Shown here piece after piece: positions 3,258-33,090 of a DNA stretch of 39,222 bases (position 1 is the first letter of the stretch; each line of letters begins with the position of its first letter). The stretch lies in the IMG/VR virus record IMGVR_UViG_2690316149_000015, positions 1 through 39,222 of that record, one strand, 5' to 3'. Under the pieces are notes generated by a model. It was not told the origin of the DNA and ran no database searches. It saw only the letters and a list, made by a program, of their open reading frames with translations. The stretch comes from a virus. Taxonomy: Duplodnaviria > Heunggongvirae > Uroviricota > Caudoviricetes. The position numbers and the translations under genes were made by a program.

Positions 3258-4124
3258 CTAAGCGAGGTTCTGGTTTTCAAATTGTTCCGGACTGAGGCCG
3301 CCACACCAACTGTGCCGCCGCCACCGATTGTAATCACATTCGATATAATTAAACACCGTTGCCCGCATTATTTCCCGGCTGATAAAGTGTTCTCCATGGA
3401 TACATTCCACTTTCAGCGAATGAAAGAAGCTTTCCACGCAGGCATTATCGTAGCAGCAACCTTTTGCGCTCATACTTCCACGCAGATTATGCCGCTTCAG
3501 TTGCGCCTGATAATCTGCTGAACAGTACTGGCCTCCACGGTCCGTGTGAACGATAACGTTCCGGGGCCTCTTACGCCGCCACAGCGCCATCTGCAGGGCA
3601 TCGCAGGCCAGTTGCGCCGTCATGCGTGGCGACATTGACCAGCCAATAACGGCACGTGACCACAGGTCAATGACCACTGCCAGATACAGCCAGCCTTCAT
3701 CTGTACGTAAGTACGTGATGTCTCCTGCCCACTTCTGGTTCGGGCCACTGGCGTAAAAATCCTGCTCCAACAGATTTTCTGACACAGGCAGGCCGTGTGC
3801 GCGGTAGCTGACCGGGCTGAACTTCCGGGAGGCCTTTGCCCTCAGTCCCTGACGGCGCAGGCTTGCCGCCACGGTTTTTACGTTAAAGGGGTAACCCTGA
3901 GCACGCAGTTCATCCGTCAGGCGTGGGGCACCGTAACGCTGTTTTGACCGGGTAAAAGCCGCGAGGACAACGCTGTCGCAGTGTTGGCGGAACTGCTGAC
4001 GCGTGCTTATCCTTGTCCGCCGCTGACACCACGTATACCAGCCGCTGCGGGCCACCCGGAGCACGCGGCACATTGCTTTGATGCTGAACTCAGCCTGATG
4101 TTTTTCAATAAAGACATACTTCAT
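3258..4124 (-). CDS. insF: IS3 transposase OrfB (DDE integrase domain)
   Basis: 288-aa translation recognised as IS3 InsF; overlaps orfA as expected for the -1 frameshift fusion. Confidence 0.9.
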
Positions 4125-4420
4125 TTCAGGCGCTTCGCGAAGTATGTCGCGGCCTTTTGGAGGATAGCCAGCTCTTCATCCCGTTCTGCCAGCTGGCGTT
4201 TGAGACGTGCAATCTCGGTAGACATCTCCAGTTCACGTTCAGAAGACGTCTGCTGATTTTGCTGTTTACTGCGCCAGTTGTAGAGCTGTGATTCATACAG
4301 GCTGAGTTCACGGGCTGCGGCAGTAACACCGATGCGTTCAGCAAGCTTCAGGGCTTCACTGCGAAATTCAGGCGAATGCTGTTTACGGGGTTTTTTACTG
4401 GTTGATACTGTTTTTGTCAT
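4121..4420 (-). CDS. insE: IS3 transposase OrfA (HTH subunit)
   Basis: ORF 4121..4429; ATG at 4420 follows a GAGGTGA ribosome-binding site; translation [13 protein letters not shown]... recognised as IS3 InsE. Confidence 0.9.
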
Positions 4421-5661: not shown

Positions 5662-6147
5662 ATGGCTGGAACGGCGGGGCGTTCCGGGCGTCGCCCCAAG
5701 CCAACGGCGCGCAAGGCGCTGGCCGGAAACCCCGGCAAGCGAGCCCTGAATAAAGATGAACCTGTTTTTACGCCCATCAAAGGTGTTGAGCCACCGGAAT
5801 GGTTCGCTGAAGAAGATCTCCCTCTCGCTACGATCATGTGGCAACTGACAACTAAAGAACTCTGCGGTCAGGGCCTGCTGTGCGTGACTGACCTCGCGGT
5901 GCTTGAGCGGTGGTGCGTGGCCTATGAGTTCTGGCGACGTGCCGTGAAAAATATTGCCAGCCAGGGCAACACCATTACCGGTGCAATGGGCGGTATGGTC
6001 AAAAACCCGGAGCTGACCGCCAAGAAAGAACAGGAGTCCGAGATGAGCAGCACGGGGGCAATGCTCGGACTCGACCCCAGCAGCCGCCAGCGTCTGATTG
6101 GCCTGGCGGGGAAGAAGAAAGCCACTAACCCGTTTCTGACAATCTGA
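5662..6147 (+). CDS. terminase small subunit, P27-type (copy 2)
   Basis: Translation identical to copy 1; immediately precedes the intact TerL. Confidence 0.85.
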
Positions 6148-21787: not shown

Positions 21788-22362
21788 CAAACGATGATTA
21801 CATCCGCCTGTTATCGGCACTGTTGCCGCCCGGTCCGGCGTGGTCAGCCAGCGATCCGGCGATTGCCGGTGCGGCACCGTCATTAACCCGTGTTCATCAG
21901 CGTGCGGATGCCCTGATGCGGGAGCTGGATCCGCGCACCACCACTGAACTGATAAACCGCTGGGAGCGTCTGTGCGGTCTGCCGGATGAATGTATTCCGG
22001 CAGGGACGCAGACCCTTCGCCAGCGTCAGCAACGGCTGGATGCGAAGGTTAACCTGGCGGGCGGCATCAACGAGAATTTTTATCTTGCACAGCTTGCTGC
22101 CCTGGGCAGACCAGACGCTACCATCACGCGATACGACAAAAGCACGTTCACCTGCTCATCGGCCTGTACTGACGCGGTGAATGCGCCGGAATGGCGGTAT
22201 TACTGGCAGGTCAACATGCCAGCCGCCACAAACACCACCTGGATGACATGTGGCGATCCCTGTGATTCCGCGCTGCGTATCTGGGGCGACACCGTTGTCG
22301 AGTGTGTGCTTAACAAACTCTGCCCGTCGCATACCTACGTAATTTTTAAATATCCGGAGTAA
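21778..22362 (+). CDS. tail protein, Mu gp48 / YmfQ-like (DUF2313-type)
   Basis: 194 aa between baseplate J and the tail fibre, the same slot as ymfQ in e14. Confidence 0.7.
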
Positions 22363-22365
22363 TCC

Positions 22366-23046
22366 ATGCATCGTATAGACACGAAAACCGCGCAGAAGGA
22401 TAAGTTCGGCGCGGGTAAGAACGGTTTTACCCGTGGTAACCCCCAGACCGGCACACCTGCCACCGATCTGGATGATGACTACTTTGACATGTTGCAGGAA
22501 GAACTTTGTAGCGTGGTGGAGGCATCCGGTGCCAGTCTGGAGAAGGCGCGGCACGACCAGCTGCTTACCGCGCTTCGTGCGCTGCTGTTAAGCCGCAAGA
22601 ATCCGTTTGGCGATATCAAATCGGATGGCACGGTGAAAACGGCTCTCGAAAACCTTGGTTTGGGAGAAGCGGCAACGAGGAACGTCGGAACGGATACCGG
22701 GCAAGTACCAGATATGAGTAGTTTTACAACGGGGCACTCTGGAGCAGCAGACTGGCCGAATTCTAAATCTGGATGGAGTAAGGGGCCGGATGGGGTAATT
22801 ACACAATGGGGTATTTTCGGTTTCCCCGTTGGACAGACAGGGACGAATGTTGTTTTCCCGCTACCTTTCCCCGCGCGGGTCGAATCAATTACACTGACAA
22901 TGGCAGATATCCAGGAGTCTCTGCTTTCTCCAACAACCATGCCTGCTTATGGAGTTAACTCAACTGGTACTTCAAGAACGGGTTTTACAGCCCGTATGTC
23001 AGGTAGCGGTGGGTTTAATCTTTGCTATATAGCGAAAGGGAGATAA
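22366..23046 (+). CDS. tail fibre protein: constant N-terminus plus currently expressed variable C-terminus
   Basis: 226 aa; the upstream Pin crossover site lies inside it at 22643-22668, encoding ALENLGLGE. Confidence 0.8.
22643..22668. promoter_or_regulatory. Hin/Gin/Pin-family inversion crossover site (left)
   Basis: 26-bp imperfect dyad CTCTCGAAAACC-TT-GGTTTGGGAGAA; the last 14 bp are identical to the reverse complement of the site at 24470-24495. Confidence 0.65.
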
Positions 23047-23050
23047 CAGA

Positions 23051-23494
23051 ATGAATAAAGTTAAAAGTGTTTACAGCCCTTCCGAAAATGCAATCTACAA
23101 CGCAGCGCTATACGAAAGTTATATCAAGGAGGGGACATGGCCGCAGGATGGTATTGAAATCAGCGATGAGGATGCTGTCAGATTTAATGGGGGAAATAAG
23201 CCAACAGGAAAAATGCTGGGAATGGTTTCAGGGGCCCTTGCATGGGTTGATGAGCCGCCGCTTTCACCAGAACAGAAAATATCAGATGCAGAAAACATGA
23301 AAGCCACATTTCGTGCAAAAGCTGACAGTGAAATATCCTGGCGTCAGGATGCTGTTGATGCGGGCATTGCAACTGATGAAGAAACTTCAACTCTCACCCA
23401 ATGGAAGAAATACCGTGTGCTGCTGATGCGTGTTGATACTTCAACAGCCCCCGATATTGAATGGCCTACGCCTCCGGCAGTTCAGGCCAGATGA
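23051..23494 (+). CDS. tail fibre assembly protein (Tfa), inside the invertible segment
   Basis: 147 aa; C-terminal region (WKKYRVLLMRVDTSTAPDIEWPTPP) typical of Tfa/U-family chaperones; converges on a second tfa on the other strand. Confidence 0.85.
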   Translation: MNKVKSVYSPSENAIYNAALYESYIKEGTWPQDGIEISDEDAVRFNGGNKPTGKMLGMVSGALAWVDEPPLSPEQKISDAENMKATFRAKADSEISWRQDAVDAGIATDEETSTLTQWKKYRVLLMRVDTSTAPDIEWPTPPAVQAR

Positions 23495-24068
23495 CATCCG
23501 GCGCGGTGCTGGTATCTGTTGCCGTCACCGCGTCGATATAATCCAGCACAACGTTAAGGCGAGTTGTTTCTGCCTGCATCAACTTCCGTCCGGCCTGCAA
23601 TTTCAGTTGAATCAGACTGATGGAAGCCATAGCAGCATCAATAAGCGACTGGCGCTGTGCTTCTGCTGCATCTACTGCGGCGCTATGCTGTGCCTCGGTA
23701 TCCGTCACCCATTTCTCACCATCCCATTCATCGTATGGCGTTAACGGGGCGATAGTGGTCGTATTTTCAGGATAATCACCCGGACCTGTGATTTCTTTCA
23801 ATTCTCCTGTTTCGGTGCTATAAACGATTTCACCGCGATGGTCTGGCACATATTCCCATGAGTTTAAATCCATCGAACGGCAGATAGCATAACCCGCCTT
23901 ATGTGTGCCAGGGGCATCTAAACAGGAATATGCAGGGATACCGACACCAATGGCAAGATATTCATTTGAAGTGGAAATATATTCCCGAGTTTCACCATCA
24001 TAGTTATAGACGGTAATATTCCCCGCCTTCGTGGCAATAAGCTCGCTATTTAATACGGCGTTATCCAT
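23466..24068 (-). CDS. alternative tail fibre assembly protein (Tfa'), inside the invertible segment
   Basis: 200 aa on the minus strand with the same C-terminal Tfa signature (TSTAPDVIWPELPE); 3' ends of the two tfa genes overlap. Confidence 0.85.
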   Translation of the reverse strand: MDNAVLNSELIATKAGNITVYNYDGETREYISTSNEYLAIGVGIPAYSCLDAPGTHKAGYAICRSMDLNSWEYVPDHRGEIVYSTETGELKEITGPGDYPENTTTIAPLTPYDEWDGEKWVTDTEAQHSAAVDAAEAQRQSLIDAAMASISLIQLKLQAGRKLMQAETTRLNVVLDYIDAVTATDTSTAPDVIWPELPEA

Positions 24069-24523
24069 TATGCAGCCCTCACGATAAAGTTAAATGCAAT
24101 ATTTCGTGGACGGGTTTCACTCCCGCCATATGATGATGTAAATCCCGAATATGCCCGGTGTCCCGCATCCGTCGTATTAGCCCAGGAAGGACCGCTAGAA
24201 GTATAGATGACCCCATTGTAATCATGGCCGTGTGCCTCAATGCTCCCGTCCTGAGCAGACAGGAGAGTCCGTCCTGAATCAATTCCTCTTCCATCATCCC
24301 ACCCACGAATGAATTCGCCGCGTAAATCTGGCAATTTATTTGTCGGATAAACTTTTGCCAGTTCCGGATACTCTTCGGCAGAAAAAGCTGCACCGTTGCA
24401 TTTCAGCCAACCTGTTGGCGGTGTGACTGAAGGCCACGGAACAGGCACACCTACGGGTAATGCAGAGCCTTCTCCCAAACCAACGTTTATGAAAATGCAG
24501 AAATAACGAGCAAATGGCATCAT
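24068..24523 (-). CDS. silent alternative tail fibre C-terminal cassette (S'v-like), expressed only after inversion
   Basis: Contains the PVGVPVPWP..GW..C..G..F tail-fibre tip motif; its 5' end encodes NVGLGE across the right crossover site, in frame with LGLGE at the left site. The ORF-track start is probably not a real start. Confidence 0.8.
   Translation of the reverse strand: MMPFARYFCIFINVGLGEGSALPVGVPVPWPSVTPPTGWLKCNGAAFSAEEYPELAKVYPTNKLPDLRGEFIRGWDDGRGIDSGRTLLSAQDGSIEAHGHDYNGVIYTSSGPSWANTTDAGHRAYSGFTSSYGGSETRPRNIAFNFIVRAA
24470..24495. promoter_or_regulatory. Hin/Gin/Pin-family inversion crossover site (right)
   Basis: TTCTCCCAAACC-AA-CGTTTATGAAAA; reverse complement TTTTCATAAACG-TT-GGTTTGGGAGAA shares the central TT and 14 bp with the left site; lies just upstream of pin. 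Confidence 0.65.
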
Positions 24524-24549
24524 TCCTGCTTTTGTCAGGGAGATCTACC

Positions 24550-25104
24550 ATGCTTATTGGCTATGTACGTGTGTCAACAAATGACCAGAACACAGATCTA
24601 CAACGTAATGCGCTGAACTGTGCAGGATGCGAGCTGATTTTTGAAGACAAGATAAGCGGTACAAAGTCCGAAAGGCCGGGACTGAAAAAACTGCTCAGGA
24701 CATTATCGGCAGGTGACACTCTGGTTGTCTGGAAACTGGACCGACTGGGGCGCAGTATGCGGCATCTTGTCGTGCTGGTGGAGGAGTTGCGCGAACGAGG
24801 CATCAACTTTCGTAGTCTGACGGATTCAATTGATACCAGTACCCCAATGGGGCGCTTTTTCTTTCATGTGATGGGTGCCCTGGCTGAAATGGAACGAGAA
24901 CTGATTGTTGAACGAACAAAAGCTGGACTGGAAGCTGCTCGCGCACAGGGACGAATTGGTGGACGTCGTCCCAAACTTACACCAGAACAATGGGCGCAGG
25001 CCGGGCGATTAATTGCATCAGGCGTTCCTCGCCAGAAGGTGGCGATCATCTATGATGTTGGTATATCGACACTGTATAAGAAGTTTCCGGTCGGAGATAA
25101 ATGA
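24550..25104 (+). CDS. pin: serine DNA invertase, Pin/Hin/Gin family
   Basis: ORF 24514..25104, start taken at MLIGYVRVSTNDQ; catalytic serine motif and C-terminal HTH; recognised as essentially the e14 PinE sequence. Confidence 0.95.
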   Translation: MLIGYVRVSTNDQNTDLQRNALNCAGCELIFEDKISGTKSERPGLKKLLRTLSAGDTLVVWKLDRLGRSMRHLVVLVEELRERGINFRSLTDSIDTSTPMGRFFFHVMGALAEMERELIVERTKAGLEAARAQGRIGGRRPKLTPEQWAQAGRLIASGVPRQKVAIIYDVGISTLYKKFPVGDK

Positions 25105-25105
25105 A

Positions 25106-25143
25106 ACCGTAGCACGTCGTATGCAAGAAGATCGTGCTGCGGT
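25106..25143. terminator. putative bidirectional hairpin between convergent pin and GIY-YIG genes
   Basis: ACCGTAGCACG ... CGTGCTGCGGT, an 11-bp stem with one mismatch and a 16-nt loop, in the 60-bp gap between the two stop codons. Confidence 0.35.
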
Positions 25144-25164
25144 TTATGCTTATCACTTAAAGAC

Positions 25165-26034
<870 letters not shown>

Positions 26035-26117
26035 CTAACCCTTTGAATTTACATAGCGCAAAAAGATACCTTTCCTCATAATGTGAGCTAATTTTATGTT
26101 TCGTTTGATGATCGGGT

Positions 26118-26179
26118 CGGTCTCGAAAACCGGAGTAGGGGCAACTCTACCGGGGGTTCAAATCCCCCTCTCTCCGCCA
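26118..26179 (+). other. partial tRNA-Ser (serU-like, anticodon CGA) 3' fragment; probable prophage attR core
   Basis: CGGTCTCGAAAACCGGAGTAGGGGCAACTCTACCGGGGGTTCAAATCCCCCTCTCTCCGCCA matches my recollection of the serU 3' 62 nt (anticodon loop, variable arm, T arm, acceptor 3' strand, CCA). No D-arm or 5' acceptor sequence upstream. Confidence 0.65.
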
Positions 26180-26278
26180 CTTTATCAATGACTTATCTCC
26201 CGACTTCCCGCCTTGCTTTTCCTAAACAGAACAATCGTAGAATATTCTTGAAGGGTTAGATCGTCACTGTTTTCTGTT

Positions 26279-26505
26279 CAGAACAGAAAATATCAGATGC
26301 AGAAAACATGAAAGCCACATTTCGTGCAAAAGCTGACAGTGAAATATCCTGGCGTCAGGATGCTGTTGATGCGGGCATTGCAACTGATGAAGAAACTTCA
26401 ACTCTCACCCAATGGAAGAAATACCGTGTGCTGCTGATGCGTGTTGATACTTCAACAGCCCCCGATATTGAATGGCCTACGCCTCCGGCAGTTCAGGCCA
26501 GATGA
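26279..26505 (+). pseudogene. 5'-truncated tail fibre assembly gene (copy 2 of tfa 3' part)
   Basis: Duplicate of the tfa C-terminal 75 codons only; the N-terminal part is missing because the repeat unit starts inside tfa. Confidence 0.7.
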
Positions 26506-27079
26506 CATCCGGCGCGGTGCTGGTATCTGTTGCCGTCACCGCGTCGATATAATCCAGCACAACGTTAAGGCGAGTTGTTTCTGCCTGCATCAACTTCCGT
26601 CCGGCCTGCAATTTCAGTTGAATCAGACTGATGGAAGCCATAGCAGCATCAATAAGCGACTGGCGCTGTGCTTCTGCTGCATCTACTGCGGCGCTATGCT
26701 GTGCCTCGGTATCCGTCACCCATTTCTCACCATCCCATTCATCGTATGGCGTTAACGGGGCGATAGTGGTCGTATTTTCAGGATAATCACCCGGACCTGT
26801 GATTTCTTTCAATTCTCCTGTTTCGGTGCTATAAACGATTTCACCGCGATGGTCTGGCACATATTCCCATGAGTTTAAATCCATCGAACGGCAGATAGCA
26901 TAACCCGCCTTATGTGTGCCAGGGGCATCTAAACAGGAATATGCAGGGATACCGACACCAATGGCAAGATATTCATTTGAAGTGGAAATATATTCCCGAG
27001 TTTCACCATCATAGTTATAGACGGTAATATTCCCCGCCTTCGTGGCAATAAGCTCGCTATTTAATACGGCGTTATCCAT
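26477..27079 (-). CDS. alternative tail fibre assembly protein (copy 2)
   Basis: Identical translation to 23466..24068. Confidence 0.8.
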   Translation of the reverse strand: MDNAVLNSELIATKAGNITVYNYDGETREYISTSNEYLAIGVGIPAYSCLDAPGTHKAGYAICRSMDLNSWEYVPDHRGEIVYSTETGELKEITGPGDYPENTTTIAPLTPYDEWDGEKWVTDTEAQHSAAVDAAEAQRQSLIDAAMASISLIQLKLQAGRKLMQAETTRLNVVLDYIDAVTATDTSTAPDVIWPELPEA

Positions 27080-27534
27080 TATGCAGCCCTCACGATAAAG
27101 TTAAATGCAATATTTCGTGGACGGGTTTCACTCCCGCCATATGATGATGTAAATCCCGAATATGCCCGGTGTCCCGCATCCGTCGTATTAGCCCAGGAAG
27201 GACCGCTAGAAGTATAGATGACCCCATTGTAATCATGGCCGTGTGCCTCAATGCTCCCGTCCTGAGCAGACAGGAGAGTCCGTCCTGAATCAATTCCTCT
27301 TCCATCATCCCACCCACGAATGAATTCGCCGCGTAAATCTGGCAATTTATTTGTCGGATAAACTTTTGCCAGTTCCGGATACTCTTCGGCAGAAAAAGCT
27401 GCACCGTTGCATTTCAGCCAACCTGTTGGCGGTGTGACTGAAGGCCACGGAACAGGCACACCTACGGGTAATGCAGAGCCTTCTCCCAAACCAACGTTTA
27501 TGAAAATGCAGAAATAACGAGCAAATGGCATCAT
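27079..27534 (-). CDS. silent tail fibre C-terminal cassette (copy 2)
   Basis: Identical translation to 24068..24523. Confidence 0.75.
   Translation of the reverse strand: MMPFARYFCIFINVGLGEGSALPVGVPVPWPSVTPPTGWLKCNGAAFSAEEYPELAKVYPTNKLPDLRGEFIRGWDDGRGIDSGRTLLSAQDGSIEAHGHDYNGVIYTSSGPSWANTTDAGHRAYSGFTSSYGGSETRPRNIAFNFIVRAA
27481..27506. promoter_or_regulatory. second copy of the right inversion crossover site
   Basis: Position of 24470-24495 plus 3011 within the identical repeat. Confidence 0.6.
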
Positions 27535-27560
27535 TCCTGCTTTTGTCAGGGAGATCTACC

Positions 27561-28115
27561 ATGCTTATTGGCTATGTACGTGTGTCAACAAATGACCAGA
27601 ACACAGATCTACAACGTAATGCGCTGAACTGTGCAGGATGCGAGCTGATTTTTGAAGACAAGATAAGCGGTACAAAGTCCGAAAGGCCGGGACTGAAAAA
27701 ACTGCTCAGGACATTATCGGCAGGTGACACTCTGGTTGTCTGGAAACTGGACCGACTGGGGCGCAGTATGCGGCATCTTGTCGTGCTGGTGGAGGAGTTG
27801 CGCGAACGAGGCATCAACTTTCGTAGTCTGACGGATTCAATTGATACCAGTACCCCAATGGGGCGCTTTTTCTTTCATGTGATGGGTGCCCTGGCTGAAA
27901 TGGAACGAGAACTGATTGTTGAACGAACAAAAGCTGGACTGGAAGCTGCTCGCGCACAGGGACGAATTGGTGGACGTCGTCCCAAACTTACACCAGAACA
28001 ATGGGCGCAGGCCGGGCGATTAATTGCATCAGGCGTTCCTCGCCAGAAGGTGGCGATCATCTATGATGTTGGTATATCGACACTGTATAAGAAGTTTCCG
28101 GTCGGAGATAAATGA
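27561..28115 (+). CDS. pin: serine DNA invertase Pin (copy 2)
   Basis: Identical translation to 24550..25104. Confidence 0.9.
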   Translation: MLIGYVRVSTNDQNTDLQRNALNCAGCELIFEDKISGTKSERPGLKKLLRTLSAGDTLVVWKLDRLGRSMRHLVVLVEELRERGINFRSLTDSIDTSTPMGRFFFHVMGALAEMERELIVERTKAGLEAARAQGRIGGRRPKLTPEQWAQAGRLIASGVPRQKVAIIYDVGISTLYKKFPVGDK

Positions 28116-28175
28116 AACCGTAGCACGTCGTATGCAAGAAGATCGTGCTGCGGTTTATGCTTATCACTTAAAGAC

Positions 28176-29045
<870 letters not shown>

Positions 29046-29128
29046 CTAACCCTTTGAATTTACATAGCGCAAAAAGATACCTTTCCTCATAATGTGAGCT
29101 AATTTTATGTTTCGTTTGATGATCGGGT

Positions 29129-29190
29129 CGGTCTCGAAAACCGGAGTAGGGGCAACTCTACCGGGGGTTCAAATCCCCCTCTCTCCGCCA
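29129..29190 (+). other. partial tRNA-Ser 3' fragment (copy 2)
   Basis: Duplicate of 26118..26179 within the tandem repeat. Confidence 0.6.
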
Positions 29191-29774
29191 CTTTATCAAT
29201 GACTTATCTCCCGACTTCCCGCCTTGCTTTTCCTAAACAGAACAATCGTAGAATATTCTTGAAGGGTTAGATCGTCACTGTTTTCTGTTCGATACTGTGA
29301 CATTCAGCACTTGATTCGCTATGGATCTGACAGGAAGGTTTCGAGCGAAAATCTGCAGTTATTCAGTCGTTTTCTTATCGGTCACCATTATTCTTTTAGA
29401 CATTGATCCTACAAAGCTGCCGCAAAGTTGGTGGTGGGAACTGAAGTTGCGTAGAGAAGGGGTCAATACCCGGAGGCACACATGGGCTGGCAAAAGTGTA
29501 GCGGTATTAGGCGCAGCTATTTAGCCTAGTTATGTTTTATGAAAACTTGATGTCATATAAGTGTCTTACTTATTGGCTGTAAATAAGTTTTTTCTAAGGA
29601 ATTGTTTCTTGAGTATCATTTGTAACTGTAACGGAATTTATAATCCTTTGCTTTATTGTTACGGTATTTTTTATCACACCCTATTTTTTATGTGGTTTTT
29701 TATACTGAAGTTTGGCAAAGTGAACTTTATATGCATATACTTCATCCTAGTTTCAGTTAAATTGGGTGGATGAT

Positions 29775-31381: not shown

Positions 31382-32041
31382 ATGGAATTATTCGAAAATT
31401 ATTTGTCAGCGTTACCTAAAAAAAAGCGATTGAGTAAAGTCAAGTTGATTATCCTAAAGAGATTATGGGTTTCAGATGATTTTGATTTTCCTAAACCTTG
31501 GGTCCCATCGACAGAATTACTGGAATTGACAGGGCAAAAGTACTTCGATAGACGAACAAGAGAGTTGCGTGATGAACTAGGCTGTGATCTCGAAAGCTCG
31601 TACATTCCGGAATTCTCGGGACATGCTTGGCGGCTGAAATCAAGCATGATTGCCCCGCCAATGGAAAGGGAATATCTGACAGAATCACAACGATCCAGTT
31701 TATTTTCTAACTGCAGCAATACATGTGCAACATGTGGTAAAACTGTTGCCGCTGGGGTCAGGGGGCTACAAGCGGATCACAAAATACCTTTGTCACGCGG
31801 TGGTGGAAATGAGTTAACCAATTGGCAAGCTCTTTGCCACAATTGCAACGTAGGTAAGAGAAGAGCATGTGAGGGATGTACTGAAGATTGTTACACATGC
31901 TCATGGGCATTTCCTGAAAAATTTGGGATAACAACAATGCTCCATCTGCCAGAAGCTAGTTTAAGAAGAGCCCAACAACTAGCTGATGCAAAGGGTTTTT
32001 CTTTAGACGAAATCGTTGACTACGCAATACGCAAGCTTTGA
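31382..32041 (+). CDS. HNH endonuclease with N-terminal putative recognition domain and C-terminal RHH-like tail (candidate restriction endonuclease)
   Basis: 219 aa; zinc-binding HNH core (CATCGK...QADHKIPLSRGGGNELTNWQALCHNCN) plus a second Cys cluster (CEGCTEDCYTC); the 3' end overlaps the convergent methyltransferase gene by 22 bp. Confidence 0.8.
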   Translation: MELFENYLSALPKKKRLSKVKLIILKRLWVSDDFDFPKPWVPSTELLELTGQKYFDRRTRELRDELGCDLESSYIPEFSGHAWRLKSSMIAPPMEREYLTESQRSSLFSNCSNTCATCGKTVAAGVRGLQADHKIPLSRGGGNELTNWQALCHNCNVGKRRACEGCTEDCYTCSWAFPEKFGITTMLHLPEASLRRAQQLADAKGFSLDEIVDYAIRKL

Positions 32042-33090
32042 ACATCATTCGATTCCAGTGGTGATGCCAACTGTTTTTTTTTCATTAGATCAACCGCTTC
32101 GAGTGCTTTACGAATTTGCCTTCCTGTTGCTTCGGCAACAGGAGGAGGAAAAGCGTTACCTACTTGACGATAAGCAGCTGTTTTTTTCCCAGAGAATTCC
32201 CACCAGTCCGGGAAACCTTGGATTCGTGCAGCCATTCTCACCGTCAAACGAGGCATATTTTCAAGACCTGCTCGAATATTTCCGTCTCTTCCAATATACC
32301 CAGTAAACCCCTTTTCAGGGCTACTATCAGCTATGGAATGCCCGTTGACTCCAAGCGCTTGCCAAGCTTTTTTGGCTCTCGTCGGTCCAAGGTCTGGACC
32401 TCCATGCTTATGGGAACCGCCAACAAGTGTAGGGGCTATATTGTTAGCGGCCTTTCTCCATGCCTCGGCTCCTTCCCAGCCACCCTGTGACATTAAGTCA
32501 AAGAGAGCATCACCCACAGTCGGTGGTATCAACGTTTCACTCGGCCAACGAAAATGAGCGGAATACTTACCACGCAATGCAACTAAAAGAACTCGGGGAC
32601 GAAGCTGAGGAACTCCGTAATCAGAAGCGTTATGAAGTTTCCAAAAGGTTTTATAACCCATTGCAGAGAAAGCATGATCTAGTTCTTGTCGGTATTGTTT
32701 AAACTTTGGGTCTAATAAACCTGAAACATTTTCAATCATTACTGCTTTTGGCTTAATGATGTTCACAATTTTGAGCGCTGTTGGAAACAAATCACGTTCA
32801 TCATCTTTGCCTAGTTGTTTCCCTGCTTTTGAGAATGGCGGGCAGGGCACTCCCCCTGCGACCAAGTCAATATCAGAAAAATTATATGCAGTATGTTCAG
32901 CAAAATGCTTAACGCAACCCTCTATGATATTTTCCCAACCTAAAGAATGGAGCTCATTGTTGAGGCGAAGAGTTTCGCAGGCTGCAGGATCAATCTCGAC
33001 GAGCGCGCGGTGAGTGAAGCCAGCGTTATGTAACCCTAGAGCTTGACCTCCTGCCCCTGCACAAATCTCTACAGATGTGTATTGTAACAT
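32020..33090 (-). CDS. DNA (cytosine-5)-methyltransferase
   Basis: 356 aa with canonical C5-MTase motifs: I (EICAGAGG), IV (GGVPCPPFSKAG), VI (ENV), VIII (QLRPRVLLVA), X (GNAFPPPVA). Confidence 0.9.
   Translation of the reverse strand: MLQYTSVEICAGAGGQALGLHNAGFTHRALVEIDPAACETLRLNNELHSLGWENIIEGCVKHFAEHTAYNFSDIDLVAGGVPCPPFSKAGKQLGKDDERDLFPTALKIVNIIKPKAVMIENVSGLLDPKFKQYRQELDHAFSAMGYKTFWKLHNASDYGVPQLRPRVLLVALRGKYSAHFRWPSETLIPPTVGDALFDLMSQGGWEGAEAWRKAANNIAPTLVGGSHKHGGPDLGPTRAKKAWQALGVNGHSIADSSPEKGFTGYIGRDGNIRAGLENMPRLTVRMAARIQGFPDWWEFSGKKTAAYRQVGNAFPPPVAEATGRQIRKALEAVDLMKKKQLASPLESNDVQSLRIA

Follow-up and report, generated by a model that had tools for sequence, protein, structure and literature searches.

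Tail-fibre genes that face an oppositely oriented second set of fibre sequences raise the question of whether the arrangement forms a DNA inversion switch, which recombinase would operate it, and how it is related to known systems, among which inversion of the P segment has been described since the 1980s. The window examined here, i.e., the whole stretch of 39,222 nucleotides that was analysed, contains such an arrangement in a tailed-virus record. We conclude with high confidence that the locus represents a P segment of the e14 type, in which the serine invertase Pin (PinE) operates a switch within the tail-fibre operon of a prophage, and that a third crossover site and a second pin gene found in the same window are most likely not real. 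The P-segment type of switch is already known, and the sites of the present locus are identical to those of E. coli K-12.

Results

Paired recombination sites flanking the fibre genes

Two 26-bp sites lie inverted to each other, each composed of two imperfect 12-bp half-sites and a 2-bp core. The left site on the fibre side (CTCTCGAAAACC-TT-GGTTTGGGAGAA) is located at 22643–22668 on the + strand, and the right site on the pin side at 24470–24495 on the − strand, reading TTCTCCCAAACC-AA-CGTTTATGAAAA as + strand and TTTTCATAAACG-TT-GGTTTGGGAGAA as its reverse complement, with the core being TT at both sites when read in the same sense. Both 26-mers were found exactly where the first-pass annotation had placed them, and agree base for base with the e14 sites of K-12, whose name, pix, presumably goes back to the original papers. 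The two sites have in common the central TT and 12 inner bp, i.e., the 14 identical bp claimed before, and the identity runs on to 15 bp with the next G; in a repeat search, their arms of 20 nt showed 95% complementarity. The outer half of the left site was constant at every locus examined. The half-sites carry the family pattern (...AAACC NN GGTTT...) seen in cixL of P1, a curated site, and in gix of D108, and the comparison with published gix/pix-type sites, which had been proposed as a check, revealed identity to the K-12 e14 sites and a match to cixL and gix in architecture and site-to-gene spacing. Between the central dinucleotides lies the invertible segment of 1829 bp (22655–24483), the same length as in K-12, so that the size match to the e14 P segment asserted earlier is exact.

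When the window was searched for TTGGTTTGGGAGAA with up to 2 mismatches, matches were confined to the crossover sites (left, right, and the third copy described below); the expected count was 0.41, and the observed count was reached in 0/100 shuffles. An extra match at 32213–32224, given by a relaxed search, was rejected as a site on account of its poor outer half-sites and a count in line with chance.

Exchange of fibre tips and chaperones

In its present form, the tail-fibre gene (22366–23046, + strand) encodes 226 aa, consisting of a constant N-terminus and the C-terminus provided by cassette 1, with a Pfam match to Gp53-like_C (2.1e-10). The constant part (22366–22654, +), comprising 96 codons and the first base of codon 97, is unmoved by inversion and identical in both inversion isomers of strain MS 69-1 described below. 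The gp53-like tip of cassette 1, occupying the currently expressed position (22669–23046, +), is followed by a tail-fibre assembly chaperone of 147 aa (23051–23494, +; Caudo_TAP, 7.1e-33). Cassette 2 is encoded on the − strand by a tip with a phage tail collar domain (24068–24483; Collar, 1.1e-14), which is currently in the non-fibre position, and by the chaperone TfaE of 200 aa (23466–24068; Caudo_TAP, 8.7e-30). Each tip moves with its own Caudo_TAP chaperone, in agreement with the earlier claim that inversion exchanges the two tfa genes.

The crossover falls within codon 97. In the fibre this codon reads CTT (Leu), and in the leader its counterpart reads GTT (Val), the first base being supplied by the outer half-site that does not move. 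In-silico flipping of 22655–24483 gave an open fibre gene of 234 aa, whose stop codon overlaps the tfaE start (TAATG) and whose length equals that of a 705-bp gene annotated as "tail fiber protein" in the MS 69-1 chromosome; the predicted in-frame fusion of the constant N-terminus of about 97 aa to the alternative C-terminus is thereby reproduced. On the pin side, a fixed leader (24484–24523, −), made up of MMPFARYFCIFIN and the first base of the Val codon, opens the ORF 24068–24523 with its own ATG, the start codon (24523) being 14 codons outside the invertible segment; it reads into whichever cassette sits on the pin side, and was likewise read through in the in-silico flipped form. Cassette 2 had been described as a silent antisense cassette encoding VGLGE. 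The antisense reading holds, as the − strand peptide across the right site is ...INVGLGEGSA, but silence is not established, because the K-12 product made from the same leader start after inversion (StfE2) is functional. A scan of 22200–25300 for sigma-70 promoters and terminators yielded nothing above the shuffled expectation.

A Gin-like recombinase and its putative enhancer

The pin gene (24550–25104, +), whose start is 54 bp from the end of the right crossover site, encodes a serine DNA invertase of 184 aa with the Pfam domains Resolvase (PF00239, 1.5e-51) and HTH_7 (PF02796, 4.8e-13). The protein aligns over its full length with Gin in structure 3uj3 (E 2.7e-94, 181 residues aligned), has the catalytic Ser in a MLIGYVRVSTNDQ motif identical to that of Gin, and shares 178/184 residues (96.7%) with K-12 PinE. 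Five of the six residues that differ from PinE are located in the DNA-binding C-terminus, and all the catalytic-domain motifs are the same as in Gin and PinE. By its domains, the Gin alignment, and the PinE identity, the enzyme is a PinE/Gin-type serine invertase, as its initial assignment to the Hin/Gin/Cin/Pin group had implied.

Within the 5′ part of pin, a candidate Fis-dependent recombinational enhancer (24571–24634, +) is suggested by position and homology. It contains two Fis-like G-N13-C cores (24571–24585 and 24620–24634) with a span of 64 bp at about 95 bp from the crossover, a layout that fits Hin, and nt 19–90 of pin align with the annotated P1 cin enhancer (nt 19–90). No excess synonymous conservation was detected over the candidate enhancer, its positions being no more conserved than those deeper in the gene.

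Natural isomers of the segment

Inversion of the segment is the only difference between the MS 69-1 chromosome and a 64-kb duplicate contig in that assembly; once the 1829 bp of one isomer (L002) are flipped, 15,401 bp align to the other (L003) with 0 differences. The 64-kb pseudo-plasmid is the other orientation of a chromosomal region. Our in-silico flipped construct aligns without interruption to the MS 69-1 chromosome at 100% coverage, and the native orientation matches the 64-kb duplicate contig and two further genomes, TUM1226 and OX030728. Alignment of the junctions limits the exchange to TTGGTTTGGGAGAAG, 15 bp including the central TT, the dinucleotide itself lying beyond that resolution. 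Where the Pin sequence is exactly the same, genomes have one or the other cassette in the expressed position, with the outer half-sites fixed. The cassette 2 tip is fused to the constant N-terminus in L002, L010, L016, and L017. The inversion by Pin at these 26-mers, as originally claimed, is thus borne out by exact inversion isomers in public genomes. For the source isolate, whose assembly contains a single orientation, inversion is indirectly supported by the two orientations among the identical-Pin genomes and within the MS 69-1 assembly, and may be presumed from these sequence comparisons. As a separate observation, the cassettes are mosaic among strains, most genome matches being split into 3 pieces with a query coverage of only about 74%.

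In K-12, inversion at TTGGTTTGGGAGAAGG has been found by genome sequencing, PCR, and qPCR (PMC12529663, PMC4272514), phase variation at the e14 locus having been detected by whole-genome sequencing and PCR (PMC4272514). About 30% of a wild-type K-12 culture was inverted, and more upon overproduction of PinE or PinQ; the inversion requires PinE or PinQ, mutants in pinE being locked (PMC12529663). The StfE2 chimera made after inversion in K-12 is functional and blocks T2 adsorption (PMC12529663), which is the one published phenotype of the K-12 inversion.

A perfect repeat with a third site

The first-pass annotation, correct as to the switch itself, overlooked a perfect direct repeat of 3.0 kb, in which 23270–26279 recurs at 26281–29290 with 100% identity. 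The second copy carries tfaE, cassette 2, a third site (27481–27506) identical to the right site, a second pin gene (27561–28115), and the GIY-YIG gene. The statement that both crossover sites had been identified therefore holds for the inversion pair, but the window contains this additional copy, probably an artefact. The source record (GCA_001284085.1, CXZS01000007.1) is a draft WGS contig, in which a single N stands at the repeat junction; the window shows this base as A at 26280. In the closest relatives (99.3% identity) the sequence is present once, and among 5,426 complete E. coli genomes no record extends across the junction. A junction search of GTDB species-representative genomes likewise gave nothing, which has little weight since the source is not a species representative. 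The 3.0-kb repeat, with its third site and second pin, is probably a scaffolding or assembly artefact, because the junction is N and no complete E. coli genome spans it.

We also considered an origin of the repeat via its 10-bp reverse-complementary ends (TTTTCTGTTC / GAACAGAAAA), either by unequal exchange in the flipped state or by template switching followed by Pin inversion. Neither mechanism gives the observed structure; the predicted products (the end of the GIY-YIG gene joined to cassette 1 reversed, or a 2.4-kb repeat) were not observed.

That the tandem repeat is nevertheless real, in which case a single left site would be accompanied by a pair of directly oriented right sites and the pin gene would be present twice, appears unlikely. 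Both perfect copies are present in the window as well as in the public contig, and the complete genome CP010171.1 contains a comparable perfect repeat of 4228 bp with two pin modules. However, the junction has never been sequenced through, and besides the draft status of the contig, the single copy in the closest relatives, and the absence of the junction among the complete genomes, perfect tandem repeats of 3 kb are expected to be unstable in RecA+ cells. If real, the repeat would allow nested inversions between the left site and right site 1 (1.8 kb) or right site 2 (4.8 kb), one of which would turn round the GIY-YIG gene together with a pin gene. One unit could also be lost via Pin or RecA and shed as a 3-kb circle. 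It is distinctly unlikely that the repeat is a real and recent tandem duplication generating a three-site, two-invertase P switch, as a possible first step toward shufflon-like multi-site systems, e.g., Min of p15B.

Discussion

The results described above identify the locus as the counterpart of the P segment in e14 of K-12. Besides the sites and segment length, the two have in common the gene order stfP-tfaP-tfaE-stfE-pinE downstream of ymfQ; the homologues here are named ymfQ, tfaE, and pinE in RefSeq, and the protein identities are 97.9% for YmfQ, 90.5% for TfaE, and 96.7% for PinE. The fibre differs from K-12 StfP at 2 positions in the N-terminal 101 aa, and the K-12 counterpart of the fixed leader is the start of StfE/StfE2. 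In contrast, the cassette expressed here has a gp53-like tip with a chaperone 35% identical to TfaP, and the collar cassette is 75% identical to that of K-12 and 27 aa shorter. Downstream of pin, a LEM-3-like GIY-YIG gene is found in place of mcrA in K-12, followed by an AraC regulator, IS remnants, and an HNH/Dcm pair. Furthermore, whereas e14 is a defective element, the present one keeps the terminase, portal, capsid, and Mu-type tail, and it lies outside the K-12 context, in which e14 borders the icdC pseudogene. The different location, the lack of mcrA beside pin, and the full head and tail modules rule out that the element is e14 itself; it is a relative of e14 and apparently a complete prophage.

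The switch is also worth comparing with those of other invertase systems. The G segment of Mu/D108 with Gin similarly has a constant fibre N-terminus, two opposed cassettes of tip and chaperone, and the invertase gene just outside, gix ending 55 bp before gin as compared with 54 bp between the pin-side site and pin. However, the core of gix is GA instead of TT, the G segment, about 3 kb in length, encodes much longer fibres, and the DNA identity between gin and pin is about 72%. In the C segment of P1/P7 with Cin, cixL (CAATCCTAAACC-TT-GGTTTAAGAGAA) likewise has TT at its centre and matches 10/12 inner half-site bases, but cin lies on the other side, with cixL overlapping its 3′ end, and the segment is about 4.2 kb. 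Salmonella Hin, likewise a serine invertase with 26-bp sites, uses an enhancer of about 65 bp that is bounded by Fis sites and lies about 100 bp away from one of the 26-bp sites; it flips a flagellin promoter without swapping coding cassettes. The Min system of p15B contains six sites and several fibre cassettes undergoing nested inversions, and would come closest to the present locus only in the event of a genuine third site; the extra site here, probably an artefact, would add no new fibre tip.

By analogy to these invertases, it is most likely that Pin dimers bind the two inverted 26-bp sites and then synapse, whereupon both sites would be cut at the central TT/AA to give ends staggered by 2 bp, and that a 180-degree rotation of one subunit pair precedes religation, leaving the 1829-bp segment inverted. 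Binding of Fis to an enhancer in the 5′ part of pin would almost certainly be required, again as judged from the related systems. In one orientation, the constant N-terminus of 96–97 aa is joined to the gp53-like tip followed by its chaperone, and in the other, to the collar-domain tip followed by TfaE. The fixed leader on the pin side reads from its own ATG into the cassette outside the fibre position. Such fibre switching of the e14 type may change the host range, as can be supposed from Mu and P1.

A different selected function, namely host defence, can be envisaged, in which the chimera of the leader and cassette 1 formed after inversion would act like StfE2 in blocking the adsorption of other phages. 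The leader ORF, including its separate ATG, is conserved between the present element (MMPFARYFCIFINVGLGE) and K-12 (MPFACYFFIFINVGLGE), and the K-12 chimera prevents T2 adsorption (PMC12529663); however, cassette 1 is unlike the K-12 StfP tip that makes StfE2, and retention of the full head and tail module renders the phage's own fibre switching plausible. We therefore regard a primary role in defence as improbable, though worth bearing in mind.

It is still less probable that the switch, structurally intact, is frozen in this element, with Pin unexpressed or inactive and the orientation fixed. The promoter scan giving nothing above chance, the single orientation in the assembly, and the six differences from PinE, with five of them in the DNA-binding C-terminus, would be in line with such a state, but genomes with exactly this Pin show both cassette orientations, the catalytic-domain motifs are those of Gin and PinE, and both sites are intact. 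It is scarcely credible that the inverted repeats are a mere conserved coding motif (GLGE) at a fibre module boundary rearranged by homologous recombination, even though the common 15 bp lie in coding sequence with the same peptide encoded on both sides and the cassettes are mosaic, since efficient exchange by RecA needs more than 15 bp of homology, the complete 12-2-12 dyad known from cix/gix is found at both sites, including the half-site beside pin on the non-coding side, an intact invertase gene lies 54 bp from the right site, and inversion at the identical K-12 sites is dependent on PinE/PinQ and locked in pinE mutants (PMC12529663).

An e14-type P segment operated by Pin thus remains the reading of the locus. 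That its sites were found and correctly read from the raw sequence indicates that invertase sites can be recognized in this way, and annotators should watch for misassemblies due to invertible DNA or in its vicinity, such as the scaffold-gap "duplication" in CXZS01000007.1 and the 64-kb pseudo-plasmid of MS 69-1. Because this allele resides in an apparently complete prophage, in contrast to the remnant of K-12, fibre switching could still serve the phage.

Crossover sites and fibre fusion

The invertible tail-fibre DNA is bounded by a left site on the fibre side (22643-22668, CTCTCGAAAACC-TT-GGTTTGGGAGAA) and a right site on the pin side (24470-24495, TTCTCCCAAACC-AA-CGTTTATGAAAA, reading TTTTCATAAACG-TT-GGTTTGGGAGAA on the other strand), which have in common the central TT, a 12-bp inner half-site, and one more G. 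The positions and shared TT given in the first-pass annotation are borne out by the sequence and by a repeat search of the window, in which the two sites appeared as 20-nt arms with 95% complementarity. With up to two mismatches, the 14-mer TTGGTTTGGGAGAA occurs in the 39 kb only at these sites and in one further copy (27481-27506); the expected count is 0.41, and the observed count was reached in 0 of 100 shuffles.

The fibre gene (22366-23046, + strand; 226 aa, gp53-like C-terminal domain) is followed by the Caudo_TAP chaperone gene of cassette 1 (23051-23494, +). On the minus strand lie the gene for TfaE, a second Caudo_TAP protein (23466-24068), and a 151-aa ORF with a phage tail collar domain (24068-24523), the ATG and remainder of the first 14 codons of which stand beyond the segment, on the pin side. 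The reading frames encode LGLGE and VGLGE at the sites, as had been claimed. Codon 97 of the fibre gene contains the crossover; its first base lies in the outer, immobile half-site, so that the fibre retains Leu and the pin-side leader, a short fixed stretch read into whichever cassette adjoins pin, retains Val. In-silico inversion of 22655-24483 yields a fibre frame open over 234 aa, with its stop codon overlapping the start of tfaE, and a chimera of the leader and the gp53-like cassette on the opposite side; the proposed in-frame fusion of the constant fibre N-terminus to the alternative C-terminus is thus upheld. The pin gene (24550-25104, +; 184 aa) begins 54 bp after the right site, and its product, containing Resolvase and HTH_7 domains, aligns with the crystallised Gin invertase over 181 residues (E 2.7e-94) with the catalytic-serine motif kept.

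Comparison with e14 and the invertase family

In Escherichia coli K-12 MG1655, the e14 region is ordered ymfQ-stfP-tfaP-tfaE-stfE-pinE. Both 26-mers are exactly those of the window, and the central dinucleotides are 1829 bp apart in both, confirming the asserted match in size to the e14 P segment. Identity to the K-12 counterparts is 97.9% for YmfQ, 96.7% for PinE, 90.5% for TfaE, 74.7% for the collar cassette (versus StfE), and 34.6% for the cassette 1 chaperone (versus TfaP), and the expressed fibre tip is unlike that of K-12 StfP. The K-12 locus is phase-variable by WGS and PCR (PMC4272514). Inversion at TTGGTTTGGGAGAAGG was demonstrated there by genome sequencing, PCR, and qPCR, with about 30% of a wild-type culture inverted, more on overproduction of PinE or PinQ, and pinE mutants locked; a survey of 562 deposited genomes found inversions in 33% (PMC12529663). 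Judged by its sites, identical to the textbook example, the switch in the window is an already known system.

The comparison with published family sites was made against the curated P1 cixL, CAATCCTAAACC-TT-GGTTTAAGAGAA, with the crossover annotated within TT, and D108 gix, TTCCTGTAAACC-GA-GGTTTTAGATAA, which ends 55 bp ahead of gin. The family is defined by sites of 26 bp, by serine chemistry in which subunits rotate, and by an enhancer of roughly 65 bp with a Fis site at both ends, about 100 bp from one site (PMC3798978).

Candidate Fis enhancer

The Cin enhancer is annotated in the P1 record at nt 19-90 of cin, and the part of pin aligned to it contains two G-N13-C cores (24571-24585, GTGTCAACAAATGAC; 24620-24634, GTGCAGGATGCGAGC). 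These candidate cores span 64 bp, with the proximal centre 95 bp from the crossover; TAATG between them is one of two AT-rich elements described between the hin Fis sites. The stretch doubles as coding sequence for the catalytic N-terminus of Pin, and no extra synonymous conservation over it was found in pin. The expected location in the 5' part of pin agrees with the Cin alignment, and the enhancer is therefore a candidate placed by homology. Between the window and E. coli strain MS 69-1, 18 of the 25 differences in 21800-25200 fall within 24498-24726, from the right site into 5' pin and including both putative cores, a pattern that points to a patch of recombination over the regulatory region.

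The 3.0-kb direct repeat

The first-pass annotation was right about its two sites but missed a perfect direct repeat of 3.0 kb, in which 23268-26279 recurs at 26279-29290, so that the window has three sites, the third at 27481-27506, two pin genes, the second at 27561-28115, and two copies each of tfaE, the collar cassette, and the GIY-YIG gene. Over 20,681 bp, the source record CXZS01000007.1 (GCA_001284085.1) and the window agree at every base but position 26280, directly after the repeat junction, where the record has N and the window A; the junction is thus an unresolved gap that was never sequenced. A single N is used by some scaffolders to mark contigs placed adjacent without detected overlap, and a 3.0-kb overlap between two contigs would give exactly the observed repeat and N. 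The unit is present just once in the nearest relatives, and a search of 5,426 complete E. coli genomes found no record that reads across the junction. The repeat is most likely an assembly artefact. A real duplication appears unlikely; a precedent for one is the complete genome CP010171.1, in which two pin modules lie in a perfect repeat flanked by IS1 copies. That repeat has a period of 4228 bp and contains tfaE, tfa, a gp53-like cassette, the right pix site, pin, a GIY-YIG gene, and flxA; the CP010171.1 loci examined have two sites of the right type but none of the left. The ends abutting the N in the source record (26270-26279 and 26281-26290) are exact 10-bp reverse complements, TTTTCTGTTC and GAACAGAAAA, an arrangement reproduced by none of the template-switch and Pin-based models tried.

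Prophage context and neighbouring loci

Upstream of the fibre gene lie genes for the small and large terminase, portal, prohead protease, and major capsid protein, and further genes in the window specify sheath, tube, tape measure, and a Mu-type baseplate. By gene content, the prophage, unlike the K-12 e14 remnant, appears complete for morphogenesis, except for a gene for an IS3-family transposase (3258-4124, -; rve, rve_2, HTH_21) upstream of the terminase genes. Directly downstream of pin is a gene for a LEM-3-like GIY-YIG protein (25165-25938, -); in a comparison of this position with loci L005, L010, L011, and L018, the cargo differs between genomes, with McrA in K-12 and, elsewhere, 1254-aa and 1484-aa proteins without Pfam match or an NleG effector. 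The position seems to be a slot for variable cargo or for defence genes. Outside the fibre module, genes for an HNH-domain protein and a C-5 cytosine DNA methyltransferase converge (31382-33090), and to their right are CP4-type island genes (RadC, antirestriction). In a locus adjoining icd (L009, GCA_019584195.1), the right site (5906-5946) has a 15-bp tandem repeat with TTGGTTTGGGAGAAG twice, and the outer half of the opposite copy (4100-4125), ACAGCGGCCAGC, departs from the canonical form. The locus resembles a P segment that has been scarred or rearranged in the classical e14 location.

Natural inversion isomers

The earlier interpretation as a Pin-type fibre switch, supported by sites and length identical to e14, gains from natural isomers. 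Three records align along the whole of the 3.4-kb stretch in its native orientation at 99.3% identity, and the flipped construct matches a fourth, the MS 69-1 chromosome, end to end in a single piece at the same identity. Among 10 further loci with Pin identical to that of the window, the constant N-terminus is joined to the gp53-like cassette in some and to the collar cassette in others, with CTCTCGAAAACC always on the fibre side and TTTTCATAAACG always on the pin side, except for a single-base variant in one locus (L016). Junction alignment at both ends shows the outer half-sites fixed and all inside swapped, narrowing the exchange point to TTGGTTTGGGAGAAG.

The MS 69-1 assembly also contains a 64-kb 'plasmid unnamed3' (NZ_CP146678.1) in native orientation. 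Over the 15.4 kb compared, its prophage and chromosomal flanks are those of the chromosome, the sole difference being P-segment orientation, and a 1829-bp flip converts the chromosomal locus into it with 0 differences over 15,401 bp. Because it shares its chromosomal neighbours and protein accessions with the chromosome, we regard it as an alternative-orientation contig from a mixed culture, apparently a second haplotype that was deposited as a plasmid. This pair indicates that both orientations coexisted in the MS 69-1 culture that was sequenced.
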